DNA of 64,000 nucleotides from an uncultured archaeon (lineage in GTDB: Archaea; Aenigmatarchaeota; Aenigmatarchaeia; CG10238-14; SCSR01): contig CAYNTH010000001.1 of NCBI GenBank assembly GCA_964400475.1, forward strand, positions 819-64,818, written 5' to 3'. The stretch's first letter is position 1. Every line of letters begins with the position of its first letter. The notes beneath the pieces were generated by a model that worked only from the letters and a program-made list of their open reading frames with translations, was not told the DNA's origin and made no database searches. The position numbers and the translations under genes were made by a program. Below, piece after piece: positions 3,381-64,000 of this stretch.

Positions 3381-3381
3381 T

Positions 3382-31181: not shown

Positions 31182-31249
31182 TATTTTGATTATATTAAGG
31201 AATATCGTAGAGAACCTTGTTAGTATTTTTTGATAATGGTGTTTGTATA

Positions 31250-32338: not shown

Positions 32339-32342
32339 TTAG

Positions 32343-47986: not shown

Positions 47987-49108
47987 ATGATTGATATGGA
48001 AGAAAAGGTAAAACGACTTCTTAATTGGTCCAAAGGCCGTGCCCAGGGTCCAATAAGTGTTCACATAGATCCAACCAATAGATGCAATTTGAAATGTAGA
48101 TTCTGTTGGCAACGCTCGCATGAAAGATTTGGTTGGTTGAATACTGAAAATGAACTATCCAGAGAGAAATTAGTTTCAATTGTGGATGAAGCAGCTGAAC
48201 TTGGAGTGAAAGATTGGCTAATATCCGGCGGTGGTGAGCCCATGATGAGAGTGGACGATACTGTGGATATGATGGTAAATATTAAAAAACATGGGATGTG
48301 GGGAGATATAATAACAAATGGTACAATACCAAATGATTCACATCTGAGTAAAATAGTTAATTCCGGCTGGGATGTTTATAGGGTTAGCATAAACGCTCCC
48401 AATGAAAATGTTCACGATTATCTGGTCAATACTCCTGGAGCTTTTAGAAAAGCAGTTTCTAGAATTAAAAAAATAAACAAATTAAAAGAGAAGTTTGGAA
48501 TTGACAAGCCTGATATTGGGTTTAATACAGTCATAAATAGAGAGAATTATTCGCTTATGCCGGGTATAATAGAATTTCTGCACGAGTTGGGCGGTTCCTT
48601 CATAAATGTTCAAACAATTATACTTTATTCTGATGAAGAAGCTAGATGGTCACTGGACGAAAAACATAGAAGAGATTCTCAGAAATATCTGAAGGAAGCT
48701 ATTGAGATTTCCCATGACCTAAATATACGGACAAATTTAGAAAATTATCTAGACGATCAGTTAATGAGAGAATCAACTGAGATGGATAAGATGAAAAAAT
48801 TAGGTTTATCCGATTTGGAAAATATAGAACATTCTAATGCATTTTTTAAGTCGTTTTGTTTTGAACCATTCTATCTTATGACAATAAGATCTGATGGTAC
48901 CGTGGGATCTTGTAGATTGTTTGGTGATCAGGGGGATAATATAATCGATAAATCCTTGAAAGATGTATGGTTTGGTGATTATTTTGAGAAGGCCAGAAAA
49001 GCACAAATCAATGGTAATATTCCAAAATTTTGTTCAAAATGTGGTTCAAACGAATTTTTGGAAAATAGAAGAATAAGACGGGAATTGATTAAATATTCAG
49101 ATGATTAG
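47987..49108 (+). CDS. Radical SAM enzyme with SPASM/Twitch-type tail, array paralog 24
   Basis: DPTNRCNLKCRFCW, ISGGGEPM, ITNGTI, SINAPNENVHDYLV. Tail: FCFEPFYLMTIRSDGTVGSC...FCSKC. Confidence 0.9.
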   Translation: MIDMEEKVKRLLNWSKGRAQGPISVHIDPTNRCNLKCRFCWQRSHERFGWLNTENELSREKLVSIVDEAAELGVKDWLISGGGEPMMRVDDTVDMMVNIKKHGMWGDIITNGTIPNDSHLSKIVNSGWDVYRVSINAPNENVHDYLVNTPGAFRKAVSRIKKINKLKEKFGIDKPDIGFNTVINRENYSLMPGIIEFLHELGGSFINVQTIILYSDEEARWSLDEKHRRDSQKYLKEAIEISHDLNIRTNLENYLDDQLMRESTEMDKMKKLGLSDLENIEHSNAFFKSFCFEPFYLMTIRSDGTVGSCRLFGDQGDNIIDKSLKDVWFGDYFEKARKAQINGNIPKFCSKCGSNEFLENRRIRRELIKYSDD

Positions 49109-50215
49109 ATGGAAAAAATTGTCGAATCATTTATAAGTTGGATCAATGGAAACGTAAAAGGTCCATTAAAATTGCAGTTAAATCCAACCAATAGATGCAA
49201 TTTGAAATGCAGATTCTGTTGGTTACGGGATTATGATTCTAAACCTACCAATTATGATGAGGTAGACAGAGACCGGTATCTAGAAATAATTGAAGAAGCA
49301 AATGATTTAGGTGTCAACAAAATTGAAATAACCGGTGGCGGCGAACCGTTTTGTAGGTCTGATATACTCGATATCATGGAAAGAATAAAATCCTATAATA
49401 TTTTTGGGGAATTGATTACAAATGGAACTTTGTTTAACAATGATTCTATAAAAAAAATAATTGATATTGGTTGGGATAGAATCGTTTTTAGTTTGGATGC
49501 ACCTGATGCTGAGACGCATGATTATCTGAGAGGGGTTAGTGGATCATTTGAAAAAACAGCTTATTCTATAAAAGAATTCATAAAACACACTGACGATATG
49601 AAAAAAAGTCTACCTGAATTATGTGTTCATATGGTATTATGTAATGAAAACCATGATAAAATTTCAACTATGTTCGAATTCGTGAACAGTCTTGGTATAG
49701 ATAATCTATTTATAGAACCTATCGTGCTTCTAGCACCTGAAACAAATTCTGGTAATGATCTTATGATTGACTCTGAGCATAAGAAGAAATTATTATTGGA
49801 AATTGAAGATGCGATAGAAATTGCGACAAAATATGGATTTAAAACGAATATAGACAAATTAAGGCTGCAATTTATTGAGAACGTAAATAAAATGGATAAA
49901 TTCATAATTAGTGAATCGGTTCGATATGATAAGAATTCATTATTATCGATACCATGTTATTATCCGTGGTATCAGATGATAATAAGGCCTTGGGGGTCAG
50001 TTGGTCCATGTTGTATGTTCGATAATATTGGTGAGAACATAAAGGAGAAAAGTTTACATGACATATGGTATGGCGATTATTTTGAAAAAATGAGAGATAT
50101 ATTGAAAAAAAATAAACTTCCTAAATTTTGTTCAAAATGCAATCCTAGTCAAGTCCAGGAGAATAATAAAATACGTGAGTTTTTGAAAAGATATGAAAGA
50201 CGAAAAAATCAATAG
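49109..50215 (+). CDS. Radical SAM enzyme with SPASM/Twitch-type tail, array paralog 25
   Basis: NPTNRCNLKCRFCW, ITGGGEPF, ITNGTL, SLDAPDAETHDYLRGVSGSFEK. Tail: PCYYPWYQMIIRPWGSVGPCC...FCSKC. Confidence 0.9.
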   Translation: MEKIVESFISWINGNVKGPLKLQLNPTNRCNLKCRFCWLRDYDSKPTNYDEVDRDRYLEIIEEANDLGVNKIEITGGGEPFCRSDILDIMERIKSYNIFGELITNGTLFNNDSIKKIIDIGWDRIVFSLDAPDAETHDYLRGVSGSFEKTAYSIKEFIKHTDDMKKSLPELCVHMVLCNENHDKISTMFEFVNSLGIDNLFIEPIVLLAPETNSGNDLMIDSEHKKKLLLEIEDAIEIATKYGFKTNIDKLRLQFIENVNKMDKFIISESVRYDKNSLLSIPCYYPWYQMIIRPWGSVGPCCMFDNIGENIKEKSLHDIWYGDYFEKMRDILKKNKLPKFCSKCNPSQVQENNKIREFLKRYERRKNQ

Positions 50216-51269
50216 GCTGCTCAAATGGGCAGACGGTCAGACAGCACCACCATTCACTCTAGACATTAGTCCAACAGATAAATGTAATCTAAGGTGTTTG
50301 TCGTGTTGGCAACGAAGATTCGATACTATTGATTCTAATTATGAGTTATCTGATGCTAAGTTACTCGAAGTTGTCAATGAAGGTATTGGTATGGGGGTTG
50401 AAGAATTTGAAATAACCGGTGGCGGCGAACCCTTGATGCGGAGAAAGATTGTCATCGAAATGATGGAGTTAATCAAATCTAATGATAAGTTTGGAAATAT
50501 CACAACAAATGGAACTTTGTTTAGACGTCAAGATATTGAGAAAATCGTCGATATTAATTGGGATCAAATAACTTTTAGTTTGGACGGTCCTGATTCAAAA
50601 ACAAATAATTATTTGAGAGGAGATGAGTCTTTTGAAAAAGTAATGTCAGCAATTTCTACTTTTAATGAGCTCAAAGCACCGAAATCATCTTATCCTAAAT
50701 TAAAATTTAATTGCGTTCTTAGTAATGTCAATTATGATAAGATTGGTGAAATCATAGAATTGGCGAGTGCAAATAATGTTGGTATTGTTAGTTTTGAACC
50801 TCTCACTGTCCATTCATCGATAGGTGAAAAGTTAAAACTGGGTAGAGATGAAATTGAGAAGCTTAAGTCTACTATAATCAATTCGATTGAATTGGCGAAA
50901 AAATATAATATTATCACAAATTTAGACGGATTGAGGAATGAATCTTTCATTGAAAAATCTAATCAGATGGATGACGTTATTTTAGAAAATAACAAAGAAA
51001 AAATTAGAAGATTTCATTCAATCCTGTGCTACGAACCGTGGTGGCATATAGTTGTTAAAGTCGATGGATCAGTACAACCATGTTGTTTGTATGATTTAAA
51101 GGACGAAAATGTCAGAAATAATTCTCTAGAATACATATGGTTTGGCGAGACTTTTCAAAAAATCAGAAAAAATATTTTAGATAGAAACCTATCGGAATAT
51201 TGCTCTATATGTAATGCAGGTCAGGTTATGGAAAATATAAAGATTAGTAATTTGTTGAGTGGTGTATAA
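50193..51269 (+). CDS. Radical SAM enzyme with SPASM/Twitch-type tail, array paralog 26
   Basis: SPTDKCNLRCLSCW, ITGGGEPL, TTNGTL, SLDGPDSKTNNYLRG. Tail: LCYEPWWHIVVKVDGSVQPCC...YCSIC. 23-nt overlap with paralog 25. Confidence 0.9.
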   Translation: MKDEKINRLLKWADGQTAPPFTLDISPTDKCNLRCLSCWQRRFDTIDSNYELSDAKLLEVVNEGIGMGVEEFEITGGGEPLMRRKIVIEMMELIKSNDKFGNITTNGTLFRRQDIEKIVDINWDQITFSLDGPDSKTNNYLRGDESFEKVMSAISTFNELKAPKSSYPKLKFNCVLSNVNYDKIGEIIELASANNVGIVSFEPLTVHSSIGEKLKLGRDEIEKLKSTIINSIELAKKYNIITNLDGLRNESFIEKSNQMDDVILENNKEKIRRFHSILCYEPWWHIVVKVDGSVQPCCLYDLKDENVRNNSLEYIWFGETFQKIRKNILDRNLSEYCSICNAGQVMENIKISNLLSGV

Positions 51270-51303
51270 AATAAAGATATTTTATTCATAGTTTGTGTAA
51301 ATT

Positions 51304-52407
51304 GTGTTAGATATGAAAGACGAAAAAATCAATAGGCTGCTCAAATGGGCAGACGGTCAGACAGCACCACCATGGAGCATAGAGCTTAGTCCAACTTTGA
51401 AGTGCAATTTAAATTGTTTGTTTTGTTGGAGACATGGAAAGAATAATATCGATTTTGGAAATGAAATTAGTCTGGAGAAATATAAAAAAATAATAAAGGA
51501 AGCATCTGATATTGATGTTAGAGAGATTAAGATAATAGGTGGCGGCGAGCCATTTTTTAGGAATGATACAATTGAAATAATGAAAAATGTTAAGTTATAC
51601 GATATGATGGGATATATTTGTACGAACGGTACACGTTTCACATCTGATATGATTAATGAATTAACCGACATTGGTTGGGATCATATAAAAATAAGTTTAC
51701 ACGGTGCAAGAGAATCAACTCATGATAAATTAACTCAAGTGGATGGTTCATTCGAAAAATGTATAAAATCGATTGAGAAATTCAGAGAAGTTAAAAAAAT
51801 GTTAAAATCGAATAATCCTCACATCGAAATCGGATTTGTTCTAGTTAAGGATAATTATCATGAAATATCTGAAATGATTGATATTTCGGCTGAGTTGGGT
51901 GTGAATTCTTTTTTTGTTGAACCAATTACAGTATATAGCGAAATAGGTAAAAGAATGAAACCAAATCAATCCGATTACGAGACTTTTAGGGATATTGCAA
52001 AAAATGCCAATTTAAAAGCGAATGAATTTGGAATAGAAACAAACCTTTCTAATTTCGTCGAATCTAGATTCATGGAGAAGACAGGAGAAATGATAGATTT
52101 GATTAAAGAAGATTCTGGTGATAGTCTAGACTTCTATTCGATTCCATGTTATGAACCATGGTATAGAATGGGTATACGAGTTGACGGATCGGTTTGTCCA
52201 TGTGGGTTTTTCGATCAGGGGACAACAGATAACATAAAGGAGAAAAGTTTACATGACATATGGTATGGCGATTATTTTGAAAAAAGAAGGTACCAGTTAC
52301 TAAATAACGATTTACCACATCATTGTAAGAAGTGTTGTGTTACTCTTGTTGTAAATAATCAGAGATTAAGGAATGAATTAAAGAAGATGAGTCGAACTGA
52401 ACATTAA
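51304..52407 (+). CDS. Radical SAM enzyme with SPASM/Twitch-type tail, array paralog 27
   Basis: SPTLKCNLNCLFCW, IIGGGEPF, CTNGTR, SLHGARESTHDKLT. Tail: PCYEPWYRMGIRVDGSVCPC...HCKKCC. The start is GTG 51304 or ATG 51313. Confidence 0.9.
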   Translation: MLDMKDEKINRLLKWADGQTAPPWSIELSPTLKCNLNCLFCWRHGKNNIDFGNEISLEKYKKIIKEASDIDVREIKIIGGGEPFFRNDTIEIMKNVKLYDMMGYICTNGTRFTSDMINELTDIGWDHIKISLHGARESTHDKLTQVDGSFEKCIKSIEKFREVKKMLKSNNPHIEIGFVLVKDNYHEISEMIDISAELGVNSFFVEPITVYSEIGKRMKPNQSDYETFRDIAKNANLKANEFGIETNLSNFVESRFMEKTGEMIDLIKEDSGDSLDFYSIPCYEPWYRMGIRVDGSVCPCGFFDQGTTDNIKEKSLHDIWYGDYFEKRRYQLLNNDLPHHCKKCCVTLVVNNQRLRNELKKMSRTEH

Positions 52408-52910
52408 TCTTTAACAACCTTTAAACAATCGTTTTTCATTATATTGTTTTGGATTTTTCCACATTTCTTGATTGCATTTTCTTTATCAATCACCTTAAGC
52501 ACATTGGCTTCACAAAATGATTTTCTATCATTATTTCCTATTTTTTTACATTCTTCAAGTCCTCTTTGATAGTCTATTTCTCTTAACACATCGGCAAAAC
52601 AAAAAAATCCACTGTATTCGTCATTTAATCTATAGCATATCTCTTTAGCCACGTCTTCGTTTTCTCTTATGAAGTGATGTGATACACATGTATAAACACT
52701 CAGACTATAATCGAAATTTCTTTCACATGATTTGAATATGTCTTTACAAGAGTGTCTTAAATTATCTGAGTTTAGATTTTCACATACAGTTGTATCAATT
52801 TTTACGACATCTCCCGTGACATTTGGTTTATTGGGATATAGAAAAGTTATTGATATTCCAATAAAAATTAGAAAAGCTATTAATAATAATTTTGTTCTCT
52901 TAACATACAT
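52404..52910 (-). CDS. Small secreted or membrane-anchored protein with periodic Cys-pair repeats
   Basis: N-terminal hydrophobic segment LLLIAFLIFIGISITFLY. Three ~29-aa repeats show exact spacing C-x11-C-x16-C-x11-C-x16-C-x11-C (EICYRLNDEYSGFFCFADVL / ECKKIGNNDRKSFCEANVL / KCGKIQNNIMKNDCLKVV). No family recognised. Confidence 0.5.
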   Translation of the reverse strand: MYVKRTKLLLIAFLIFIGISITFLYPNKPNVTGDVVKIDTTVCENLNSDNLRHSCKDIFKSCERNFDYSLSVYTCVSHHFIRENEDVAKEICYRLNDEYSGFFCFADVLREIDYQRGLEECKKIGNNDRKSFCEANVLKVIDKENAIKKCGKIQNNIMKNDCLKVVKD

Positions 52911-52961
52911 ATTTAGACTTGGTTTTTCAAATATTTTAAATTATAGAAAGAATTTCTTCTT

Positions 52962-54158
52962 ATGAAAATATGTGTAATTAGTAGAGGTGATATCGAAATC
53001 GTCCCACCTACTCAGGGGGCATCTGTCAAATTATTTTCTACAATAAAATTTTTGTCCCTTCTAGGACATGAAGTCTATTTTGTAACAAGTGAACAAAGTT
53101 TTTACATTCATGTGAAAGATGGAAACTTTGAAAAAAGAATCTATCCAGATAAAATAAGGAATTTTTTTCCATATGGCAATATTAGAAAGAAAATATTGAT
53201 TAATTTAGGGATACCCAAAGAAGACGTTGTTTTGTATAAACCTTTACTCGATTTCAATCTTTGGGTTAAATCAATGTATGTTGCAAGAAAGGAGAAAATC
53301 GATATTGTACAAGCTGAATTTCCCGCATTTTCAATACCGGCCCTATTTTCTAAGTTAATGGCAAGAGTGCCTTCTGTTTTAGTCGAACATAATGTAGAAT
53401 ATTTTAGGATTAGGGAAACATCTAAACCGTCTAAGTTGGGTAATTTTATTTTGAAGTTGATAGAAAAAGTTGCATGTAAAATATCTGATTCTGTGGTATC
53501 TATAACTAGTGATGACAAGGTGAGACTGGAAAAGCTCGGTATAGATGATGAGAAAATACATATCATTCCACACGGTGTTAATTTGAATGATTTTATCAAT
53601 GTTGATCAAAAATATATTAAGAGTTTCTATGAATTGAATGGTACAGTGTTGTTTTTTCATGGAGTATTAGTTTATCCACCGAATAAAGAAGCTGCTAGAA
53701 TAATAACAAATAAAATCATGCCTTCTTTGAAAAAGATGGAAAATAAATACAGTGCAATGATTGTGGGTGATTACCCACCAAAAGAGTTGAAGCATGAAGA
53801 TGTTGTATTCACAGGTGTTGTAAAAGATTTACCCAAGTACATAGATGCTTGTGATATTGCAATAGTCCCGTTAACTGCTGGTGGGGGTATGAGGATGAAA
53901 ATACTCGAATACTTTGCTGCAAAAAAACCTGTTATATCTACGCCAAAAGGTGCGGAAGGATTTGATGTGACTGATGGGAAGGAATTAATACTTGCTGAGA
54001 TAGATGAATTCCCGGATAAAATTGAAGAATTGAATAATTCGAAAAAACTTCAAAAAAAATTGATAAATAATGCATATGAATTTGTTAAGGACTATGATTG
54101 GAAAAACATATGTAAGATGTATGTACGTGTCTATACTGATTTATTGAGCGATGATTAA
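52962..54158 (+). CDS. Family 4 glycosyltransferase (GT-B, Glycos_transf_1-like)
   Basis: MKICVISRG...; C-terminal motif VPLTAGGGMRMKILEYFAAKKPVISTPKGAEG. Confidence 0.85.
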   Translation: MKICVISRGDIEIVPPTQGASVKLFSTIKFLSLLGHEVYFVTSEQSFYIHVKDGNFEKRIYPDKIRNFFPYGNIRKKILINLGIPKEDVVLYKPLLDFNLWVKSMYVARKEKIDIVQAEFPAFSIPALFSKLMARVPSVLVEHNVEYFRIRETSKPSKLGNFILKLIEKVACKISDSVVSITSDDKVRLEKLGIDDEKIHIIPHGVNLNDFINVDQKYIKSFYELNGTVLFFHGVLVYPPNKEAARIITNKIMPSLKKMENKYSAMIVGDYPPKELKHEDVVFTGVVKDLPKYIDACDIAIVPLTAGGGMRMKILEYFAAKKPVISTPKGAEGFDVTDGKELILAEIDEFPDKIEELNNSKKLQKKLINNAYEFVKDYDWKNICKMYVRVYTDLLSDD

Positions 54159-54214
54159 ATCTTTGAAATAAAACAAATGTGTAATGATTTAAAGGTCAAA
54201 ATGTTGTGGAAATT

Positions 54215-55342
54215 ATGAAGATATTGTTTATAACACCCTTTAACTTGTTTCCACCGTATTGGGGTGGAGGCACGAGGACTTATAATCTAGTAGAGAAATT
54301 ATCGGAGAGTCATGAAGTTCATTTGATGTATCCATCCTTGAAACAGTTCAAATCCAAGGATTCCAATCAACACAAAGAGAAGTTAGAGAATCTTGGAGTC
54401 CGGCTTCACGAAGTATATACACCTTTAGGTATATTACAGTATGTGAATCCGTTTTTTCTATTTAAGTCGGTTTATCTTTCTATTAAAACTGACATAGATA
54501 TGATATTCTGCGATTATCCGTGGTCGGGTCTTTATACACTCTTTGTACATTTTTTAACTGGGAAAAAGTTTGTATTCATTGAGCACAATGTGGAGTATTT
54601 AATAAAATGGCAAATTGGTGCCAAGTATGTTAATGTAATGAAATATGTTGAAAAATTATTGGCTGAAAGGTCTTCTGCAGTTACAGTCGTATGTAGGGAA
54701 GATAAAGATGAATTGTCTAGGTTTGATTCAATATCCAGTAAGATTTTTGTTCTCGAGAATGGATTCGATGAGAAAAAGTTCTATCCAGATAAAAAATATA
54801 GTCGAGAGATAAGAAAAAAATTAGGTGTTGGTGAATCTCCATTCATATTATTTTTTGGAAAGTTGGATTATCCTCCTAATAAAGAAGCAGTTTATCATAT
54901 TAGGTGGGAAATAATGCCTAAGATTCTTGAAAAAATGCCTGATGCAAAATTCGTTGTTGTTGGAGATAGTTATAGGTTTGATTTAGAACACGACTCTCTG
55001 ATATTTACAGATGTAGTCGACAATATTGAAAGGTATATAAACGCATCAGATGTTGTAATAGCTCCATTGTTGAAAGGAGGTGGGACCAAGATAAAGATAC
55101 TTGAGTCGATTGCATGCGGAAAGAAAGTCATTACCACCTCAAAAGGAGCGGAAGGACTTATGAACGAATTCACTAGGGATTTCATAGAAGTTTCGGACGA
55201 TTGGGAATCGTTTTCAGAAAACATAATTGATGAATTAAAAAGTGAACATAACCCCAAAATTCCAAACGGATTTATAAAGAAATATTCTTGGAATAACATA
55301 TACGAAAAATTTGATAAAATTCTAGAGGGTATTAGTAATTAG
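54215..55342 (+). CDS. Family 4 glycosyltransferase (GT-B, Glycos_transf_1-like)
   Basis: MKILFITPFNLFPPYWGGGTRTYNL; C-terminal motif APLLKGGGTKIKILESIACGKKVITTSKGAEG. The track start is GTG 54206. Confidence 0.85.
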   Translation: MKILFITPFNLFPPYWGGGTRTYNLVEKLSESHEVHLMYPSLKQFKSKDSNQHKEKLENLGVRLHEVYTPLGILQYVNPFFLFKSVYLSIKTDIDMIFCDYPWSGLYTLFVHFLTGKKFVFIEHNVEYLIKWQIGAKYVNVMKYVEKLLAERSSAVTVVCREDKDELSRFDSISSKIFVLENGFDEKKFYPDKKYSREIRKKLGVGESPFILFFGKLDYPPNKEAVYHIRWEIMPKILEKMPDAKFVVVGDSYRFDLEHDSLIFTDVVDNIERYINASDVVIAPLLKGGGTKIKILESIACGKKVITTSKGAEGLMNEFTRDFIEVSDDWESFSENIIDELKSEHNPKIPNGFIKKYSWNNIYEKFDKILEGISN

Positions 55343-55349
55343 CGGTGGT

Positions 55350-56363
55350 TTGATTTCAAAAAAAAATATGCGTGGAATGACAATCAAAACTATTGTTCTG
55401 GTAATATGTTTATCAATTTTGCATTTTCTTTTACTGTTCTCTAGAACGGAACACATACAATATAGGGGATTCGGTTGGTATGGGTACAATGCAGATTATG
55501 AATTTGATATGGAGAGCGTTGACAAAATTAAAGATTTAGGTGGGAATAGTGTGAATTTGAATGTTTATTATGAATATTCTCTAGAAACCGGTACATTTGA
55601 TTTAAAATCTAATCTGACTAGGGTAGAAGAGAATATAGAACTTGCTCATCAGAATGATTTAACAGTTTTTTTATCGCCATTTGTTAATTTGGTTGGGGGA
55701 CATTACATGGCCAATTCTATTGTCGATAATACATCGGCTTATTTGTCTGGTGCACAGGACATTTCTATTGAGCTGGCTGAATTCAGTGAAGAAAATGATG
55801 TTGAATTGTATTCAATTTGGACAGAAATGGGACTGTCTTTAATTAGAATACCCAATTCTACCGAGCTAGTCAATGAATGGATACAAAATACTCGAATGAA
55901 AGTGGATAATGTATATGACGGTGACATCACAACGAAAGAGGGTGTGCAATTGAGGGTTTATAAGGATTATAATTTTTCTGGATTTGATTACATCGGAGTT
56001 TCATTCTACCCATTTACCGATTCATATTATACAGATCCATATACTAATATGACTTTTGCAGGTGTTCATGACTTAGATGAATATGAAAGAATTGTTAAAA
56101 ATGAATATGATAATTTGGAAGAATTAGAAAAGAAATTTGGATCTAAGGGGATAATATTGGGTGAGATTGGAATAGATGTTGTTGATGAAAAATATGTAGG
56201 GAGAGATAACGAGAGCAGACAAATCAGAGCCAAAGCTTATGATATACTTTTAGAATATGGTAAAAACAGCATAGATGGTTTTTATTTCGGCAAGTTTGAA
56301 CATAAATACGGTGGAAGTGAGAAACTGGATGACGTATTTAAGTCATATTTTAAGGACAATTAA
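55350..56363 (+). CDS. Membrane-anchored protein, possibly a TIM-barrel glycoside-hydrolase-like (clan GH-A-like) enzyme
   Basis: N-terminal TM segment. Candidate acid/base region SIWTEMG and candidate nucleophile region IILGEIGID, with alternating beta/alpha character. This is a weak, pattern-only call. Confidence 0.4.
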   Translation: MISKKNMRGMTIKTIVLVICLSILHFLLLFSRTEHIQYRGFGWYGYNADYEFDMESVDKIKDLGGNSVNLNVYYEYSLETGTFDLKSNLTRVEENIELAHQNDLTVFLSPFVNLVGGHYMANSIVDNTSAYLSGAQDISIELAEFSEENDVELYSIWTEMGLSLIRIPNSTELVNEWIQNTRMKVDNVYDGDITTKEGVQLRVYKDYNFSGFDYIGVSFYPFTDSYYTDPYTNMTFAGVHDLDEYERIVKNEYDNLEELEKKFGSKGIILGEIGIDVVDEKYVGRDNESRQIRAKAYDILLEYGKNSIDGFYFGKFEHKYGGSEKLDDVFKSYFKDN

Positions 56364-56378
56364 AAATACTATACTTTC

Positions 56379-58445
56379 TTATGATATTACGATATCCCCA
56401 ATTTTAAAGCTGATGCATCTAAAATCACATTCTCTGATTCCTAGTTGGGTTGGTCTATCACATCCGTCCGATTTAAATTTAATTTTATTCACACCTTGTT
56501 CAATTGGTATTTCTTTATTGATCCATTCGGATTTTATCATATCCTCTAACACAAGTTTGTCATTTATGTAAATTTCCAGTCTTCTTGATTTGTTGAAAGA
56601 TTTAATATTAAAATTCAATTTATTCCAATCTTTCTGATCACTGTTAAAAATAGTTAATGATGATTTTTCAGTCATCCATTGATATTCGCCTATTTTTCCA
56701 TTATGGAATTCTGGAGAATACCATCCAGAATCAAAGCTGACATTCGTTGTCTCAAAAAACATCAATATGAAAATTAAAATTAACCCAGCACTCAATACTA
56801 TCTTACTTTTTCCATTTAACCTGATTTTTTTGAAAATTTCTTTTTTCCATATAGCAAGAATAATGATGGATATTGGTATAAGCGATATGAATGGAGTTTT
56901 AAGAGAAAGTATGCCGATAGATTTCAAAGTGAGAAGATTTATTTTTGTTTTCCCAATGACGGGCGGAGTTAATCCACATGAATGTGGTGTAAGTCGAATA
57001 TCTATTTTTTTATTCAATATTAAATTTTCGAAAAGGATACTTCTTGGTCCATTATATGAAAATAACGGTAAATAGTGATTTATTAATGGATTTGACAATA
57101 CTTCAAATGTTTTTAATTTATTTTCATATTCAGATGGATTCATCGATGATATGGCGTCTTCTCCGTATTGTAATAAGAGAAAATTAACAAAAATTGAAAT
57201 AACTAAAGGAATTATGAGTAATTTATAATTAATTTTTTTTATCAATTCTGCTAGGGGTATCATGAGAAATGGAATAGTTGGTAATAGATATCTCAAGCCA
57301 AACCCACTAAACGCCCCCCACCATATGAGAACTTGAAATGGAATGATGCATATGAACAGAATAAACAAAAATAATAATAGAACAGATTCAATTCTATATT
57401 TTTTATAGATATAGACTATTCCTATAATTGAAAAAATAAGAATTGGATAATAAAAAAATATACCTTTAGATGGAAAAATCAGTATTTGAAGAATTATTGG
57501 AATTGAAGTTGATTTTAATCTGATGAAATTCTGAACGGTCGATAAGATGCCACTATTCTGGTTTATATAAATTTTTTTCAAGTTCTGTGGAATGGATATG
57601 GTTTCTATATATTCCAATCTTCCAGCAAAATCCAATGGATTGGAAAATATTGAATAATTGTAAACAATCAGAGGTAATAATCCAATAGAGGTTCCAATTA
57701 CAAAAATATAGATATAGTCTTTTCTTATAGACATTGCATATAAAAGACATATAATTGAAATCAATAAGATGGAATACCCAACCACTATACCGAAACCTAA
57801 AAAAATCCCAGCCAAGAATGGTATTCTCTTTTGCAGTGGATTTTTCTTAAATTTAAAGAGTAGATAGAACGATAAGAATCCAAAAAAAGTTTCTACAGCG
57901 TGACCTGTAAAAACCAATGAATGCGGGAATGCCAGAGTACCCAATCCATATATAGACGCAAGTAAAATCCTCTGTAGTTCATTGTTTGTAAAATATTTCG
58001 AAATTTTATACAATAATAAAACGGTCAGTGCAGAAATTAATGAACTAGTAAACGTTGTGATCAAAAACATTGAAATAAGTTCAAAGCTGCCTGGATTAGG
58101 ATAATACGTGAAAGCGACATCATTTACATAATAAATCATTTCTTCTTTGAATGTATCTTGGGGTGTTTGCGGATTATAATAACGATGTACTATTTCCCAT
58201 AATTTATAAATAGGAGTAGCTAAGAAAGACATCCCAGGGGGTTTATCTGTATAGTAATGATTTTTATAGTAAGATCTATCACCCGTTTCATTATAAAAAG
58301 AATCTATATTGAGTGTGTTTTCTTCGATTATGGATTTTGTCAAAGCAAATCTACTAAATTCGTTCCAAGATATCCATTGTGAAAAAAAAGAAAATATCAA
58401 AAAAAAGGTTAAAAATATTTTTATATCTTTGGAAATTTTAACCAT
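56379..58445 (-). CDS. Large polytopic membrane glycosyltransferase, GT-C fold (ArnT/PMT_2-like), with a C-terminal beta-rich extracytoplasmic domain
   Basis: The first loop DRSYYKNHYYTDKPPGMSFLATPIY resembles the y.eKPPl motif of ArnT/PMT_2 enzymes. About 13 or more hydrophobic segments. The C-terminal ~130 aa are soluble (GWYSPEFHNGKIGEYQWMTEKSSLTIFN...). Confidence 0.6.
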   Translation of the reverse strand: MVKISKDIKIFLTFFLIFSFFSQWISWNEFSRFALTKSIIEENTLNIDSFYNETGDRSYYKNHYYTDKPPGMSFLATPIYKLWEIVHRYYNPQTPQDTFKEEMIYYVNDVAFTYYPNPGSFELISMFLITTFTSSLISALTVLLLYKISKYFTNNELQRILLASIYGLGTLAFPHSLVFTGHAVETFFGFLSFYLLFKFKKNPLQKRIPFLAGIFLGFGIVVGYSILLISIICLLYAMSIRKDYIYIFVIGTSIGLLPLIVYNYSIFSNPLDFAGRLEYIETISIPQNLKKIYINQNSGILSTVQNFIRLKSTSIPIILQILIFPSKGIFFYYPILIFSIIGIVYIYKKYRIESVLLLFLFILFICIIPFQVLIWWGAFSGFGLRYLLPTIPFLMIPLAELIKKINYKLLIIPLVISIFVNFLLLQYGEDAISSMNPSEYENKLKTFEVLSNPLINHYLPLFSYNGPRSILFENLILNKKIDIRLTPHSCGLTPPVIGKTKINLLTLKSIGILSLKTPFISLIPISIIILAIWKKEIFKKIRLNGKSKIVLSAGLILIFILMFFETTNVSFDSGWYSPEFHNGKIGEYQWMTEKSSLTIFNSDQKDWNKLNFNIKSFNKSRRLEIYINDKLVLEDMIKSEWINKEIPIEQGVNKIKFKSDGCDRPTQLGIRECDFRCISFKIGDIVIS

Positions 58446-58598
58446 AGTATCAATTAGTATTTGTTATTGAAGATGAATAAAAGATTTTATGCATTGTTTC
58501 TAGTGGTCGTTCGCGAAGAAGTTCAGCCCCTTTTTTATTTAGAGTCTGGATAACAGTTGATAAATAATATTAATTAATAGTAAATATAACTTATTATT

Positions 58599-59861
58599 AT
58601 GGAACAAAATTTATTACAAAGCCCGTTAATCAGGGAGAAAGAAGCTTCAATTTGCCCCAGATGTGGTGAAATTGTTTCTATAAAAAAAGAGTTGAATGGG
58701 GGGTTTTTGTATGTTACAAGAGACTGTCCTAATTGTAATTTAAAGAAGGAACTTGTATGCAAAAAAGACGATATTACTGATAATTATTTCTGGAACAGCC
58801 CAACGTCTAATCTCATAAGAGAGGAAAATTATTTAAATAATATCAGAGTTTTTGACGTTCTTGTCACGCGAAAATGTAATTCCAATTGTAATGTATGTTT
58901 TGAAAAATGGTGTGGGGATAAATATGAAGAAATGAGTATATCGAATCTTGAAGAATTGTCGAAGTCTGTCAAAAATTCTAAGATAGTATTGAATGGGGGT
59001 GAGCCCACCGTAAGAGAGGATTTGGTAGAGATGATAGAGATTATTAAAAATAGTGGGAATATCCCACTATTATATACAAATGGTTTGAAACTATCAAACC
59101 GAAGTTATCTTAAAAAATTAAAGGAAAGCGGACTTAATGAAGTTTCGATATCATTCGATGGGTTCGATGGCAATATTTATGAAACAATTCGTGGAGGTAA
59201 AGAACAATATTCTGAAACTGTTAAAGCTCTTGATAATCTTGAGAAGGAGAAAATAAAGGTCTCCTTATATTCTACGATTGTTAAAAATCTTAACGAGAAA
59301 CAGATTCATAACATTATAGATTTTGCCAATTCACATAGTTTTGTATGGACGGTTTCTTTTAAGCCATTGTATTTACCTGGTGTTAATCCCTCGGCCGGGT
59401 TCGATAAAAATCATGTGATGTCTTATTCCGAAATATTGAATTTGATTAGTCAAGATATTGATGGATTAAATTATGAATATATATGTTTAACCCAGAGTAT
59501 TTTTTCATCTTTACAAGAGATATTTGCTGAGAAAAAAAATCCAGTTTACCTTTCGTGGGTCGATTTACCATGTATCTATGTGAAAAGGGGAGATAGTGGC
59601 CCTCAACTACTTTTTTCCCACGAAACTCTGAGGAAAATAAATAGCATCTTGAATACAGAAAGTGCTAGATCCTCAATAAAATTAATTTCTAAAATAATGC
59701 CATTTGGTTTGGATTCTTTGGAATCACTTATACAAGAAAGAAAAGTTTTCAGAATTCTGTTAGGAGGTATAATGCCTCAAATTTCATTATACAAGCCTCC
59801 AATAGCTATGGTATGTCAAAAGAATAACGAGTTATCTCTTTATTCTTATTTGGCATGGTAG
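58599..59861 (+). CDS. Radical SAM protein with N-terminal zinc-ribbon, tandem family member 1 (tentatively Tes/GDGT-MAS-like)
   Basis: ICPRCGE...DCPNCN (CxxC...CxxC), then VTRKCNSNCNVCFE (CX3CX2C), NGGEPTVREDL, YTNGLKL, SFDGFDGNIYETIRG. Confidence 0.75.
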   Translation: MEQNLLQSPLIREKEASICPRCGEIVSIKKELNGGFLYVTRDCPNCNLKKELVCKKDDITDNYFWNSPTSNLIREENYLNNIRVFDVLVTRKCNSNCNVCFEKWCGDKYEEMSISNLEELSKSVKNSKIVLNGGEPTVREDLVEMIEIIKNSGNIPLLYTNGLKLSNRSYLKKLKESGLNEVSISFDGFDGNIYETIRGGKEQYSETVKALDNLEKEKIKVSLYSTIVKNLNEKQIHNIIDFANSHSFVWTVSFKPLYLPGVNPSAGFDKNHVMSYSEILNLISQDIDGLNYEYICLTQSIFSSLQEIFAEKKNPVYLSWVDLPCIYVKRGDSGPQLLFSHETLRKINSILNTESARSSIKLISKIMPFGLDSLESLIQERKVFRILLGGIMPQISLYKPPIAMVCQKNNELSLYSYLAW

Positions 59862-59923
59862 TTATTTTATTGGACAATTGATTTAGTTAAATCTATATCT
59901 AATATTCTATATAATAGGAGATA

Positions 59924-61309
59924 GTGGTAATTTTGTCTAAAAGTTATCGGCATTTAAACAATATTAAAAGTGTATGCCCACAATGTTTGAAAATCATTGA
60001 AGCGGATGTTATCGAAAAAGATGGAAAAGTCATAATATCAAAGGTATGTCCAGAGCACGGAAAATTCGAATGTCTGCACATCTGGGATGATCCTTGGTGT
60101 TATGAAAAAATAAATAAACTATTTGAAAATGAACGAACCTACCCAAATGGTATACTCATAGATTTAACTTTAAGATGCAATATGAACTGCCCCTTTTGCT
60201 TTTCGTCAGACACCGATAATCAAAATTTAGATTTCAAGGAGCCGACCATCGACGATATCATAGATGATGTAAATAAATTTAAAAAAATTGTACCGTTTTC
60301 CACTGTATTTCTTTTTGGTGGTGAACCAACTATGAGGGATGATATTTTTGAAATAATATCGAGGTTAAAGGAATTAGTTCCTGATGTCTGTCTTTTTACC
60401 AATGGACTGAAATTGTCGGATGAAGATTATGTTCACAAACTTAAGAATTCTGGTATTGATTATGTTGTTTTACAATTAGATTCTTTGGATGTTGAAAAAA
60501 ATGAAAAAATTCGCGGAGAAAATTTTTTAGATGAGAAGCTGTCGGCCGTATCTAATTTAGATAAATATGATATCTCAGTCGATTTATTTACAGTGATAAT
60601 GAAAGATATCAATGAGGACGACATTGGTGGAATAATATTATTCGCATCAAAAAATTCTAAAATTATTAATAATATTTATTTATCCACTATAACTCATGAG
60701 GGAAGAGGTGAGAATACTAATATTTTTAAACAAGTTACGAATGCAGAAAGGCTCGGGATAATTGAACATAAGTTTGGAATAAAGAAAGATGATTTCTTAG
60801 AATCAACGGTATTTGATCATTATTTGTCGAGATTTTTCAGTAAACTAACAGGAACACATTGTAAACATCTTGCGGTATGTGACATGATGTGTTATATGTA
60901 CTCTTTAGACGATGATATTGTAGTTTCTTTAAACCAGTTACTTAATTTAAAAAATATCACTTCGTTTCTAGAGGAATCTATAGAAATTTTGGACAGTAAA
61001 AAATCTTTTAAACGTTTTAGAATTTTATATAATTTTCTAAAAACAATATCATGTAATGAAATGTTCATTGATATGAATATCGTTCCCAGTTTTCTATTAT
61101 CGAGCATACATTCCTTGGGACCTTTATTGAGAAACAAACCAATCAAAAATAATTTTAACAACATTTTTAGACTTATTGTGACTCAATTTCAAGACAGGTA
61201 TAATATAGATTTTGACACATTTAGGAATTGTAATTTATGGGCAAAATTACCCAATGGTGAGATTAATTCTTTTTGTAAAAAGAATATACTCTGTAGATAT
61301 ACAAAATGA
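59924..61309 (+). CDS. Radical SAM protein with N-terminal zinc-ribbon, tandem family member 2 (tentatively Tes/GDGT-MAS-like)
   Basis: VCPQCLKIIEADVIEKDGKVIISKVCPEHGKFECLHIWDDP, LTLRCNMNCPFCFS, FGGEPTMRDD, FTNGLKL, QDRYNIDFDTFRNCNLWAKLPNGEINSFCKKN. Confidence 0.8.
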   Translation: MVILSKSYRHLNNIKSVCPQCLKIIEADVIEKDGKVIISKVCPEHGKFECLHIWDDPWCYEKINKLFENERTYPNGILIDLTLRCNMNCPFCFSSDTDNQNLDFKEPTIDDIIDDVNKFKKIVPFSTVFLFGGEPTMRDDIFEIISRLKELVPDVCLFTNGLKLSDEDYVHKLKNSGIDYVVLQLDSLDVEKNEKIRGENFLDEKLSAVSNLDKYDISVDLFTVIMKDINEDDIGGIILFASKNSKIINNIYLSTITHEGRGENTNIFKQVTNAERLGIIEHKFGIKKDDFLESTVFDHYLSRFFSKLTGTHCKHLAVCDMMCYMYSLDDDIVVSLNQLLNLKNITSFLEESIEILDSKKSFKRFRILYNFLKTISCNEMFIDMNIVPSFLLSSIHSLGPLLRNKPIKNNFNNIFRLIVTQFQDRYNIDFDTFRNCNLWAKLPNGEINSFCKKNILCRYTK

Positions 61310-61344
61310 GAACGCCTTTATATCTAAAAAATAAGTTTTAGAAT

Positions 61345-62712
61345 ATGCCTATTGAGGTGCTTAATAGTACAATTAGTTTATGTCCGTCGTGTTTAGATAG
61401 AATTAATGCTAAAGTTATCGAAAAAGATGGAAAAGTCATAATATCAAAGGTATGTCCAGAGCACGGAAAATTCGAATGTCTGCATGCATGGGACGACCCC
61501 CGGCTTTATAGAGCATTTTATGAAATTTCTAAAGAAAAACAAACTTTTATCAAAGATACTACATTGGACATAACATCTAGATGCAATATGAACTGCCCCT
61601 TTTGCTTTTCCACTACAAAAAATAAATCATATGAACCGAATTTCGAAGAAATAATTAGAAGGGCGAATTTATGGAAAGATGGTAATATTCTGTTATATGG
61701 TGGTGAGCCTACACTTAGAGAAGATATTTTTGAAATAATTAAAAAAATAAAAAATAATGGGTCAGATGTACATATACTGACGAATGGTTTAAATCTTAGT
61801 AAAGAATATGTGGAAGAATTAGATAACGTTGGACTCGATAGAGTTCAACTTCAATTTGATTCATTTGATGATCAGGTAAATATTGAATTGAGGAATGAAA
61901 AAATTGTAAATCGTAAATTACGAGCAATTAGCAATTTGAAAGATACCGACATTGACTTAACTCTATTTGTTGTATTAGTCAAGAATTATAATGATGATGA
62001 ATTGGATAAAATTATTTCCTTTACTGCAAAAAATTCCAACAAAATTGTAACACTGATATTTACTCCCGTTTCTCCTGAGGGCTCTTACAACAATTTTAAA
62101 GCAGAGCATATGACAAATGATGTAATTTTCGAAAGGATTGAAGAAAAATTTGATATAAATAAAGAAGATTTTATAACTTGTACAAGATTTGATGTATCTT
62201 TGTCCAATTTCTTATACGAAATATTTGGGATCAAAAGAAGGAGCGTTGCACCATGCGAGGCACTTTGTTACATACTTGTTAAAAATCACAGAGTGTTGCC
62301 TTTAAATCGTTTAATCGAATTGGATAAATTTTCAGAAATTTTTGACAACATATGTCGGATGGATAATCGGAGTCGATTGATAAAACCATTCAGCTTTCTC
62401 TTTAAATGTATTGAAAAAAGAGTCAAAATATCCCCATCGTCTATCGGATTTTTATTTACATCATTATTGTCTATATTTATTTCCAAAATTTTTGGAAAAG
62501 CTGTTAAAAAGAATTTCACAAATACTTTTGGATTAATAATCAATCCATCCCAAGACAGGTATAATATAGATTATAATTTTATCAAGAAATGTAATTTATA
62601 CAGTGACTGTGATAATGACGAATTCACGACTTTTTGTGAAAAAAACATATTTTCTACTGGATATAAGCCTCTAGAATTATTGGATAAAAATAAAATTTTA
62701 AATCATATGTGA
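61345..62712 (+). CDS. Radical SAM protein with N-terminal zinc-ribbon, tandem family member 3 (tentatively Tes/GDGT-MAS-like)
   Basis: LCPSCLDRINAKVIEKDGKVIISKVCPEHGKFECLHAWDDP, ITSRCNMNCPFCFS, YGGEPTLRED, LTNGLNL, QDRYNIDYNFIKKCNLYSDCDNDEFTTFCEKN. Confidence 0.8.
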   Translation: MPIEVLNSTISLCPSCLDRINAKVIEKDGKVIISKVCPEHGKFECLHAWDDPRLYRAFYEISKEKQTFIKDTTLDITSRCNMNCPFCFSTTKNKSYEPNFEEIIRRANLWKDGNILLYGGEPTLREDIFEIIKKIKNNGSDVHILTNGLNLSKEYVEELDNVGLDRVQLQFDSFDDQVNIELRNEKIVNRKLRAISNLKDTDIDLTLFVVLVKNYNDDELDKIISFTAKNSNKIVTLIFTPVSPEGSYNNFKAEHMTNDVIFERIEEKFDINKEDFITCTRFDVSLSNFLYEIFGIKRRSVAPCEALCYILVKNHRVLPLNRLIELDKFSEIFDNICRMDNRSRLIKPFSFLFKCIEKRVKISPSSIGFLFTSLLSIFISKIFGKAVKKNFTNTFGLIINPSQDRYNIDYNFIKKCNLYSDCDNDEFTTFCEKNIFSTGYKPLELLDKNKILNHM

Positions 62713-62717
62713 TTTCT

Positions 62718-64000
62718 ATGAATATCATTGGAAAAACGACGAGCCTTTGTCCAAAGTGTTTTAAAAAAATAGACGCAGACATTATCGAAAAGAATGGCGT
62801 TTCGATTCTTCGTAAGGAATGTGAAAAACATGGAATTTTTGAACATCCTCATTTTTGGGACGATCCAGAAATGTATTTGTATATGTCAAAACTTTTTAGG
62901 AACATAACTGTAGAACCAGATGAGTATGGGTTTGAATTAACAACAAGATGTAATATGCATTGTCCATTCTGTTTCACAAGTGCAGATAATACTGGCGATG
63001 AGTGGAAAAAAATTGAAATGAGTAAAAAGGAGATACTCAGAACAATTAAAGGGATGAAAGATAAGACCATCTCTTTTACTGGGGGTGAGCCCACCGTAAG
63101 AGAGGATTTGGTAGAGATTTTGAATGATGTTAATAAATGTGGGTTGAGAACAGCTGTTTTAACAAATGGATTAAATTTGAATAAAAGATATATTGGACAA
63201 CTTAAAGACGCGGGAGTAGATAAGATTCAGCTTCAATTTGACTCCTTAAATGACAATGATTACCAAAAAATTAGAGGTCAAAAATGCTTAGATTCTAAAC
63301 TTGACGCAATTTCTAATTTGAGGAAATCCAATATTCATGTTAATATTTTCTCAATGCTTGCAAAAGATGTAAATGATGATCAGGTTGGTGATATAATAGA
63401 TTTTGTTATTGAACATTCAGACGTTATAAGAGCTGTTATGTTTTCTTCTTTATGTTATGAAGGAAGATATAACGAAAAATTGGAAAAAATGTCAACATCT
63501 GATATAATCGAAACTATTGAAAATCAAACTGAAATAAAGAAGAAAGATTTCATGGAATGTACCCGATTCGATGTACTGTTTTCCAATACAATCGGTCATG
63601 TCTTAAGAACCAAGAGTATTTCTCCTTGTGATACAATTTGTTATCTATACGTTGATTCGTCTAACCAACAAATTCCGATTAATCGGATAATAAATCTACA
63701 CGAGATTTCTGATATTTTTGAAAAAAATATTGAGAATAATTTAAAAATATTATTGGCACTGTTGAACCCGATGAATCTTAGAAAGATTATTAAGAATAAA
63801 AAATCAATACACCATTTACTTATGATTTCATTTAGTATTGTTAAAAATTTAGTAGGTCGTTTATTCGGAAAATCATATCATTTAGAGAATATAGTTGGCG
63901 TACTGGTAACATCGTTTCATAACAGATACAATGTTGATTTAGAATTTTTAAGGAACTGTACGATCAGAGTATATGATGGCAATAAATTCATTTCTTTTTG
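62718..64000 (+). CDS. Radical SAM protein with N-terminal zinc-ribbon, tandem family member 4; partial (runs off the window end)
   Basis: Not in the track because there is no stop in the window. Manual translation from ATG 62718 gives MNIIGKTTSLCPKCFKKIDADIIEKNGVSILRKECEKHGIFEHPHFWDDP, LTTRCNMHCPFCFT, TGGEPTVREDL, LTNGLNL and HNRYNVDLEFLRNC. The frame stays open to 64000. Confidence 0.8.
   Translation, partial: MNIIGKTTSLCPKCFKKIDADIIEKNGVSILRKECEKHGIFEHPHFWDDPEMYLYMSKLFRNITVEPDEYGFELTTRCNMHCPFCFTSADNTGDEWKKIEMSKKEILRTIKGMKDKTISFTGGEPTVREDLVEILNDVNKCGLRTAVLTNGLNLNKRYIGQLKDAGVDKIQLQFDSLNDNDYQKIRGQKCLDSKLDAISNLRKSNIHVNIFSMLAKDVNDDQVGDIIDFVIEHSDVIRAVMFSSLCYEGRYNEKLEKMSTSDIIETIENQTEIKKKDFMECTRFDVLFSNTIGHVLRTKSISPCDTICYLYVDSSNQQIPINRIINLHEISDIFEKNIENNLKILLALLNPMNLRKIIKNKKSIHHLLMISFSIVKNLVGRLFGKSYHLENIVGVLVTSFHNRYNVDLEFLRNCTIRVYDGNKFISF

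Follow-up and report, generated by a model that had tools for sequence, protein, structure and literature searches.

The four-gene array and its fold

The DNA analyzed here is a 64,000-nucleotide stretch of contig CAYNTH010000001.1 from an uncultured archaeon of the Aenigmatarchaeota, referred to below as the window. Its last part, positions 58599-64000 of the plus strand, is occupied by an array of four intact, same-strand open reading frames (ORFs), P1-P4, encoding radical S-adenosylmethionine (SAM) proteins related to the archaeal tetraether lipid synthase Tes, also known as glycerol dialkyl glycerol tetraether (GDGT)/macrocyclic archaeol synthase (GDGT-MAS). The first gene, P1 (58599-59861, plus strand, 420 aa), encodes a divergent radical SAM protein with the Tes fold, as assigned from the ORF list, Pfam, NCBIfam and a structural model. 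The other three, also on the plus strand, encode Tes-like radical SAM proteins without the N-terminal auxiliary cluster: P2 (59924-61309, 461 aa, GTG start), P3 (61345-62712, 455 aa) and P4 (starting at 62718 and extending past 64000, with 427 aa visible). The genes are separated by 62 nt (P1/P2), 35 nt (P2/P3) and 5 nt (P3/P4). P4 crosses the end of the window and, as estimated against its 445-aa orthologue from a related locus (L001_d445), is missing about 18 residues, including the last cluster cysteine. As described below, P1-P4 belong to an uncharacterized branch of the Tes/GDGT-MAS radical SAM superfamily, in which the complement of cofactors is smaller than in Tes and also changed.

The relationship to this superfamily is readily apparent from profile searches. 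The Pfam Radical_SAM model (PF04055) recognizes all four proteins at 76-107 bits (cut-off 29.5), and Zn_ribbon_HMPTM (PF23545) matches P2, P3 and P4 with 58.5, 60.7 and 52.7 bits, respectively (gathering threshold 27). For P1, Pfam finds Radical_SAM only, with no Zn_ribbon_HMPTM match at E<=0.01. Among the NCBIfam families, Tes (NF045702) ranks first for P2-P4, followed by TrsS (NF045646), and the order of the two is reversed for P1. The Tes scores amount to 115.2, 221.6, 221.7 and 207.9 bits for P1, P2, P3 and P4, and those for TrsS to 134 bits for P1 and 185-204 bits for P2-P4; none of the proteins reaches the equivalog cut-off of 450 bits for Tes or the cut-off of 490 bits for TrsS.

The structural comparison leads to the same family. 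In a phmmer search of PDB sequences, P3 matches 7tol, the structure of the Methanocaldococcus jannaschii enzyme MJ0619, with an E value of 1.5e-46, and the next match, MoaA, follows only at 1.5e-14. The AlphaFold2 model of P3, built from 29 clade sequences, has a mean predicted local distance difference test (pLDDT) value of 92.3 and superimposes on 7TOL in Foldseek with a query TM-score (TMq) of 0.83 over 481 columns (E 2.8e-34), the next fold again being MoaA, at 0.37-0.38. The P1 model (pLDDT 86.9) also finds 7TOL as its best match (TMq 0.68, E 7e-23); for the P1 and P3 models together, MoaA is the next fold, at TMq 0.37-0.43. According to these models, the complete GDGT-MAS fold, consisting of a rubredoxin domain, a partial TIM barrel and a C-terminal lipid-pocket/cluster domain, is present in P3 and in P1. 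The original prediction, which assigned the array to Tes/GDGT-MAS-like enzymes from a resemblance of the termini, is therefore correct at the level of fold and superfamily: MJ0619/Tes, and no other radical SAM family, gives the best matches in the profile searches (P2-P4) and the structure searches, with 7TOL/7TOM ahead by both sequence and fold. Membership in Tes proper is not confirmed, since the NF045702 scores remain below half of the cut-off, the N-terminal cluster and the residues Met439 and Tyr459 of MJ0619 are not kept, and the proteins fall into a separate clade.

Metal-site ligands and relationships of the four paralogues

MJ0619 has been proven structurally and in vitro to be a tetraether/macrocyclic archaeol synthase (PMC9433317). 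It contains four metal sites: a rubredoxin-like Fe site (CX2C-X20-CX2H), an N-terminal [4Fe-4S] cluster bound by C73, C77, C80 and a histidine, the radical SAM cluster, and a C-terminal [4Fe-4S] cluster bound by three cysteines and the labile Met439 (PMC9433317; 2026 review PMC13459092). Both Met439 and Tyr459 are strictly conserved across 1000 archaeal Tes homologues (Lloyd et al. 2022, PMC9433317), and the M439A variant of MJ0619 remains active (PMC9433317).

The radical SAM site is common to the whole array, as had been predicted: the CX3CX2C, GGEPT and TNGL motifs are found in all four proteins. The rubredoxin-like CX2C-X20-CX2H pattern is exact in P2-P4, and within the clade C13, C16 and C37 never vary, with H40 conserved in at least 90% of the sequences (P3 numbering). 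In P2 this site is followed by the radical SAM motif CNMNCPFC and by C-terminal-domain cysteines arranged as CX3C...C...C; the corresponding key residues of P3 are C13/C16/C37/H40, C80/C84/C87 and C304/C308/C416/C431. The Cys/Cys/Cys/His ligands of the predicted zinc ribbon are thus retained in homologues. The N-terminal pattern CPxC...CxxHG...WDDP, originally ascribed to all four paralogues, holds for P2-P4 and not for P1, which carries CX2C-X20-CX2C in this region, together with the radical SAM motif CNSNCNVC and a conserved C-terminal end, SYLAW. The fourth ribbon ligand of P1 is not conserved within its own family, where the only invariant cysteines are those of the radical SAM motif and the ribbon is degenerate. 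Likewise, the C-terminal signature (Q/H)(D/N)RYN(I/V)D...C is present in P2-P4, to which it had been attributed, and P1 is without it.

The most evident departure from MJ0619 concerns the N-terminal cluster. The segment of about 25 residues that contains CPxDCGxC, located about 25 residues before the radical SAM motif, is absent from P1-P4 and from the whole clade; all canonical Tes sequences from archaea and all bacterial TrsS-like ones that were examined contain it. The ligand columns of the C-terminal cluster were inspected in 225 superfamily members, 70 of them N-cluster-bearing and 155 N-cluster-less. In the N-cluster-bearing group, the three C-terminal cysteines are conserved in 70/70 sequences, methionine occupies the Met439 column in 61/70, and a cysteine occurs in the C308 column, four residues past the first C-terminal cluster cysteine, in only 3/70. 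In the N-cluster-less group, the three cysteines are kept in 143, 143 and 120 of the 155 sequences, methionine is almost never found at the Met439 column, and the additional cysteine in the C308 column is present in 70/155, P2-P4 among them. P2 and P3 keep all three C-terminal cysteine columns; P4 keeps two, the third lying beyond the window, and P1 has none of the C-terminal cluster ligands. The Met439 column is occupied by T, N and T in P2, P3 and P4, and the Tyr459 site, IHY in canonical Tes, reads LWA in P2, LYS in P3 (with the tyrosine shifted by one position) and IRV in P4. This ligand pattern suggests a Met-to-Cys swap in P2-P4, through which the CX3C motif may complete an all-cysteine C-terminal cluster. 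A comparison of C-terminal-domain hydrophobicity barely separated the clades and is not used as evidence.

The clade is by no means restricted to the window. A profile search of 1.84 billion representatives yielded 1182 proteins at E<=1e-30; after clustering at 50% identity, 124 of the 150 top-scoring representatives have no N-terminal cluster motif. N-cluster-less members occur in DPANN archaea, Saccharibacteria and Omnitrophota, with one to four or more Tes-like genes per locus. The nearest named relatives are at 41% identity for P1 (Aenigmatarchaeota) and 43% for P3 (Altiarchaeales), and the host is probably a DPANN archaeon. In a genome scan with a narrower clade alignment, the matches listed were mostly canonical Tes at 24-35% identity. 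Canonical Tes is found in the same phyla (Altiarchaeales, locus L044; Aenigmatarchaeota, locus L025), which shows that the N-cluster-less genes are additions to Tes and not replacements of it.

In a neighbor-joining phylogeny of the four copies and their relatives, P2-P4 and P1 fall into clades outside the canonical Tes and bacterial TrsS-like groups, and each copy pairs with a different gene of the orthologous array L001 (P1 with L001_a419, P2 with L001_b462, P3 with L001_c456 and P4 with L001_d445). The paralogues of the window share 27-41% identity, with P1 at about 27-29% to P2-P4, compared with about 55-65% between each protein and its 1:1 orthologue in another genome (63% for P3 and L001_c456). 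As follows from the 1:1 pairing, the four genes are old paralogues and not the product of a recent amplification; they have probably diverged in function.

On this divergent background, short tracts of perfect nucleotide identity are observed on the plus strand. A 71 nt tract, 60008-60078 in P2 and 61414-61484 in P3, covers the second rubredoxin knuckle VIEKDGKVIISKVCPEHGKFECLH. A 39 nt tract shared by P1 (58994-59032) and P4 (63080-63118) covers the SAM-binding motif GGEPTVRED. Both had been reported at these positions in the original prediction. A 32 nt tract across the radical SAM CX3CX2C motif was also correctly recognized in length and identity, with its left coordinate off by one: it spans 60173-60204 in P2, not 60174-60205, and 61579-61610 in P3. 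One further perfect tract of 22 nt pairs position 61190 with 62551. The codon-aligned nucleotide identity of the paralogues is otherwise 45-56% (56% for P2/P3, 48% for P1/P4), and P2 and P3 use the same codon at only 56% of the positions with identical residues. Consequently, protein-level constraint cannot explain about 23 identical codons in a row, the chance of which is about 0.56^23 = ~2e-6 even with the protein sequence fixed. No comparable tracts were found in the orthologous arrays L001 and L003, which argues for recent conversion in this genome and against a selected DNA element. In sum, they represent micro gene conversions of recent date that were seeded where the best-conserved motifs are encoded.

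Genomic partnership and the radical SAM island

The neighborhood of the clade was characterized in eleven independent N-cluster-less contexts (L001, L003, L004, L006, L049, L050, L074, L086, L087, L088 and L090), including representatives of Altiarchaeales (L003), Omnitrophota (L006), Saccharibacteria (L049), Nanoarchaeota (L050) and Aenigmatarchaeota (L074). A UbiA-family prenyltransferase gene lies beside or near the Tes-like genes in 8/11 of them (L001, L003, L004, L006, L074, L087, L088 and L090), and B12-binding radical SAM (B12-radical-SAM) genes occur in 8/11. Other recurrent partners are SPASM radical SAM proteins, class I methyltransferases, PMT_2-type and other polytopic membrane proteins, and glycosyltransferases of families 2 and 4 (GT2 and GT4); sulfatases and GT-C genes recur in related loci. 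The suspicion that such an array serves a role other than that of a housekeeping lipid enzyme is supported by this conserved, non-Tes gene neighborhood. As defined here, members of the clade have only one CX3CX2C motif, are ~430-470 aa long and have a UbiA and/or B12-radical-SAM gene no more than ~10 kb away. The window proteins show the sequence features of this definition (single CX3CX2C, length), and the nearest B12-radical-SAM gene of the window lies 13.6 kb upstream of the array. A literature search returned no description of the N-cluster-less subfamily or of a UbiA/B12-radical-SAM/Tes-like module.

Two of these loci are particularly informative for the window. In L001, on a 769-kb contig, a GT4 gene is followed by a 334-aa protein, a GDSL-like protein and, on the minus strand, a 689-aa membrane protein; then come a MiaB-like radical SAM gene, the P1 orthologue, a minus-strand B12-radical-SAM gene and three zinc-ribbon radical SAM genes, with UbiA, a 225-aa protein and two GT2 genes at the end. 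L090 mirrors positions 47987-64000 of the window almost gene for gene: four radical SAM genes of the SPASM type come first, then the two GT4 genes, a 336-aa protein and, on the minus strand, a membrane protein, and after these one Tes-like gene and UbiA. In L090 (10001-12179), the end of the single Tes-like gene overlaps the start of UbiA by 23 nt, which suggests translational coupling. UbiA is thus the next gene after the orthologous array of L001 and after the one Tes-like homologue of L090, and by synteny with these loci it would be expected directly downstream of P4, beyond base 64000.

The UbiA genes linked to the clade (L001 12834-13631, L003 3229-4035, L004 14071-14907, L006 9104-9922 and L074 11368-12183) encode a subfamily of their own, with mutual E values of 1e-10 to 1e-25. 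These proteins match no PDB sequence and give weak profile matches to chlorophyll synthase, digeranylgeranylglyceryl phosphate (DGGGP) synthase and MenA. The possibility that they make a polyprenyl-phosphoribose donor, as in the mycobacterial decaprenylphosphoryl-arabinose (DPA) pathway, was considered and not adopted, no phosphoribosyltransferase match being found at E<=1e-5.

Among the other contexts, L086 (1-17353, GCA_964415355.1) is a one-strand, radical-SAM-rich island, where three Tes-like genes of the N-cluster-less type are accompanied by eight genes for B12-binding radical SAM proteins and by one MiaB-like, one SPASM and one GT2 gene.

In the window itself, the earlier picture of a surface-polymer island around the array proved incomplete: glycosyltransferases and an exporter are present, but 33 of the ~52 ORFs are radical SAM genes. 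All-against-all phmmer comparison and motif scans divide these into a group of 27, 2 of B12 type and the 4 Tes-like genes. The 27 ORFs, distributed over both strands between 10690 and 52407, encode proteins of 344-467 aa with an N-terminal CX3CX2C motif (typically CNLxCxxC), and those tested are of SPASM/twitch type. Their pairwise identity has a median of 31% and a maximum of 54%, and they are old paralogues. None of them reaches a curated family cut-off, the best sub-threshold model usually being TIGR04317 (tungsten-cofactor oxidoreductase maturase). Of the two B12-binding proteins, the one at 17215-18825 (plus strand) scores best against C-methyltransferases of RiPPs (peptides synthesized on ribosomes and modified after translation); the other, at 43598-45010 (plus strand), is HpnJ/BchE-like (195 and 188 bits, below the cut-offs) and is the closest relative in the window of the B12-radical-SAM gene inside the L001 array (E 1.2e-39).

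A block upstream of the array is shared with L090. At 47987-56363 (plus strand), it comprises four radical SAM/SPASM genes, a 168-aa minus-strand ORF, two GT4 genes and a 337-aa protein resembling glycoside hydrolase (GH) families GH113/GH5, and this order recurs in L090 directly upstream of its Tes-like gene and UbiA. The 168-aa ORF (52404-52910, minus strand), which comes after the four SPASM genes and before the two GT4 genes, contains 10 cysteines and has no family match. Adjacent to P1 and divergent from the array is a gene for a 688-aa polytopic membrane protein (56379-58445, minus strand), a conserved neighbor of the clade whose homologues adjoin Tes-like genes in L001, L003 and L074. 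It matches no Pfam family and no PDB sequence, and in NCBIfam it gives a weak match to the LA_3751/LA_3752 putative glycosyltransferase family (56 bits, cut-off 200). An assignment as a GT-C enzyme was not adopted, as a BLASTP comparison with the PMT_2 protein that takes its place in L090 showed no similarity.

The rest of the window contains several further genes. A PMT_2-type membrane glycosyltransferase is encoded at 4560-5915 (minus strand), and an ABC-2 permease with a 465-aa ATPase, of the polysaccharide/teichoic-acid exporter type, at 5961-8170. An identical copy of this ATPase occurs in the Logan assembly SRR7048220, and its best named relatives are from Aenigmatarchaeota (47% identity). 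Two paralogous DUF2079 polytopic membrane proteins (27295-28881, minus strand; 45068-46624, plus strand), a GT2 gene and a gene for a GDSL-like protein are also present. Two adjacent fusions of an aldo/keto reductase with a 4Fe-4S dicluster ferredoxin (31217-33965, plus strand; 373 and 540 aa) could act as electron donors or reductases for the pathway. Finally, an open frame of at least 1132 aa at 3-3398 (minus strand), which crosses the window start, combines an N-terminal hydrophobic segment with a very high content of Cys, Asp, Ser and Gly and matches no Pfam family. Its product is probably a giant secreted or surface protein. The G+C content around it is 40-42%, compared with about 30% elsewhere in the window.

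Candidate substrate and chemistry

The tight linkage of the Tes-like genes to an intramembrane prenyltransferase supports a lipid as the substrate. Among ~76 N-cluster-bearing loci of the canonical Tes/TrsS-like type, only 1 weak UbiA match of this type was found, in a screen with queries of this UbiA subtype only, and 5 loci have a B12-radical-SAM gene. It is proposed tentatively, with a confidence that falls slightly short of even, that P1-P4 carry out radical C-H activation or C-C coupling on a UbiA-derived prenyl lipid and not the conversion of archaeol to GDGT. By analogy with MJ0619, P2-P4, which have lost the N-terminal [4Fe-4S] domain at the surface, would use the rubredoxin-like Fe site, the [4Fe-4S] cluster that cleaves SAM, and the C-terminal domain with the lipid pocket and cluster. 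The hydrocarbon tail of the lipid would be held in a hydrophobic tunnel, where the 5'-deoxyadenosyl radical would abstract a hydrogen atom from an unactivated sp3 carbon; the resulting substrate radical could be parked on the C-terminal cluster, as in MJ0619, and coupling with a second activated carbon would then give the C-C bond. The prenyl lipid supplied by the accompanying UbiA protein might subsequently be tailored by the B12-radical-SAM and SPASM enzymes and used by the membrane glycosyltransferases and the ABC-2 exporter of the island. The individual paralogues may act at different positions or steps, for which GrsA/GrsB offer a precedent. P1, with the fold and the SAM cluster only, would be at most an accessory hydrogen-abstracting enzyme, or a partner.

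Several observations weigh against this proposal. The clade is also found in bacteria (Saccharibacteria and Omnitrophota), so that an archaeal isoprenoid ether lipid cannot be its universal substrate. The island is dominated by SPASM/twitch enzymes, whose characterized relatives mostly act on peptides or cofactors. No UbiA gene is present among the genes of the 64 kb window, and a distant UbiA may have been missed at the canonical loci by the screen described above. The clade-linked UbiA proteins have a degenerate first Asp-rich motif (N[DQLR]xx[DE]) and an HxxxHxxED-like second one, and they matched no curated NCBIfam subfamily; they may not be standard prenyl-diphosphate transferases. In addition, the neighbor-joining tree that places P1-P4 outside canonical Tes carries no support values.

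The main rival to a lipid-directed function is the tailoring of a non-lipid substrate. Here P1-P4, together with the 27 SPASM/twitch and 2 B12 enzymes, would modify a glycan, a lipid-linked sugar head group, a peptide or a surface protein, the Tes-like C-terminal domain having been repurposed. The company of 33 radical SAM genes with GT2, GT4, PMT_2 and DUF2079 proteins, a GH-like gene and an ABC-2 exporter is consistent with this explanation, as are the best matches of the B12 enzyme at 17215 to RiPP C-methyltransferases and of the SPASM genes to peptide and cofactor maturases, the Cys-rich secreted protein of at least 1132 aa at 3-3398, and the sulfatases and GT-C genes of related loci. However, every SPASM match lies far below the family cut-offs, and no precursor peptide is known, although no search for one was made. 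The whole GDGT-MAS fold, including the lipid-pocket C-terminal domain, is kept in a high-confidence model, and no partner is linked more tightly or more often than an integral-membrane prenyltransferase, whose gene overlaps the Tes-like gene in L090. A non-lipid substrate is regarded as possible but rather unlikely. A second rival, that the four proteins are true Tes isozymes making GDGT or macrocyclic archaeol for the membrane of the organism itself, with the copies reflecting dosage or chain-length variants, is improbable. It would account for Tes as the top NCBIfam family of P2-P4 and for 7TOL as the top structure, and two tes homologues do occur in some methanogens (PMC8941075), but it is difficult to reconcile with scores of 208-222 bits for P2-P4 against an equivalog cut-off of 450, with the absence of the N-terminal cluster, and with the loss of Met439 and Tyr459, which are strictly conserved in Tes (PMC9433317). 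Furthermore, the clade is separate and also bacterial, canonical Tes occurs in the same phyla, and the conserved neighbors were not found at canonical tes loci, as far as the screen with this UbiA subtype extends.

Two further explanations have very little in their favor. If the array were decaying duplicated DNA without distinct functions, the conversion would simply homogenize redundant copies, and tandem genes with conversion tracts would indeed be expected; yet all reading frames are intact, the cofactor ligands are conserved, the 1:1 orthologues (~55-65% identical) are much closer than the paralogues (27-41%), and the conversions are short (22-71 nt) and limited to motif regions, all of which makes decay highly improbable. 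Least probable of all is a function as pterin C-methyltransferases (HMPTM), the original annotation of MJ0619 and the origin of the Pfam zinc-ribbon name. This annotation survives in the name Zn_ribbon_HMPTM and in one JGI homologue labeled as 7,8-dihydro-6-hydroxymethylpterin dimethyltransferase, but MJ0619 has been identified structurally and in vitro as the tetraether/macrocyclic archaeol synthase (PMC9433317), and no pterin or methanogenesis genes are located nearby in the window.

The radical modification of a UbiA-derived prenyl lipid could also be extended to an undescribed, radical-SAM-rich pathway, in which Tes-like proteins, UbiA, B12-radical-SAM enzymes, dozens of SPASM enzymes and membrane glycosyltransferases would build or remodel a cross-linked, cyclized or methylated prenyl (glyco)lipid or lipid-anchored surface polymer by means of a two-cluster, all-cysteine Tes variant. 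Such a pathway would be laterally shared among ultra-small episymbionts (DPANN, Saccharibacteria and Omnitrophota). In this extended form the proposal is speculative and, on present evidence, unlikely to hold in full.

The array thus represents a subfamily of the Tes superfamily with reduced and altered cofactors and a conserved, different genomic partnership. To our knowledge, no enzyme other than Tes that couples two unactivated sp3 carbons in lipid tails is understood in structural terms, and a large sister branch without the N-terminal cluster or the labile methionine offers a natural test of which metal centers such C-C coupling needs. Moreover, tes genes serve to predict producers of GDGT biomarkers; homology-based "Tes" calls in genomes of DPANN, Candidate Phyla Radiation (CPR) and Omnitrophota would over-predict tetraether synthesis. 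The branch suggests that organisms regarded as incapable of lipid biosynthesis have an undescribed product that is a lipid or is anchored to one. With 33 radical SAM genes in a stretch of 64 kb, a genome that is probably small shows an unusually dense investment in radical chemistry.

Compared with known systems, the window proteins are closest to Tes/GDGT-MAS (MJ0619; 7TOL, 7TOM; NF045702), with which they share the fold, the CX3CX2C and GGEPT motifs and, in P2-P4, the rubredoxin-like site and a C-terminal domain with three equivalent cluster cysteines and a (M/Q)D.YN.D motif. They differ from it in the missing N-terminal cluster insert, in the missing Met439 and Tyr459, and in the extra cysteine of P2-P4; the clade also differs in its arrays of 1-4 paralogues, in its occurrence in Saccharibacteria and Omnitrophota, and in its partnership with UbiA, B12 radical SAM, SPASM radical SAM and membrane glycosyltransferase genes. 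TrsS (NF045646) and the bacterial Tes-like clade of Clostridia, Chloroflexota and others have a similar length (~440 aa) and the architecture of the superfamily, but retain the N-terminal CPxDCGxC cluster motif and the conserved methionine; no characterized function of TrsS was found in the literature searched. Outside the Tes family, the radical SAM core of MoaA (GTP 3',8-cyclase) comes closest, although only the partial TIM barrel aligns (TM-score 0.37-0.38), and MoaA has neither a zinc ribbon nor a Tes-type C-terminal domain.

In the absence of oxygen, the enzymes Mss, Gms and GrsA/GrsB create C(sp3)-C(sp3) bonds on lipid tails, and their auxiliary clusters have been proposed to hold radicals (PMC13459092; PMC13159169). 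As compared by description, the bacterial membrane-spanning lipid synthase Mss is only remotely related to Tes, the glycerol monoalkyl glycerol tetraether (GMGT) synthase Gms has no rubredoxin domain, and the GDGT ring synthases GrsA/GrsB provide the precedent for position-specific paralogues (PMC13459092; PMC13159169). None of these has been reported with a module of UbiA, B12-radical-SAM and Tes-like genes.

As regards other features of the window, Rfam and tRNA scans gave no match, and TATA-like A/T-rich boxes are located 20-30 nt ahead of the starts of P1 and P3.

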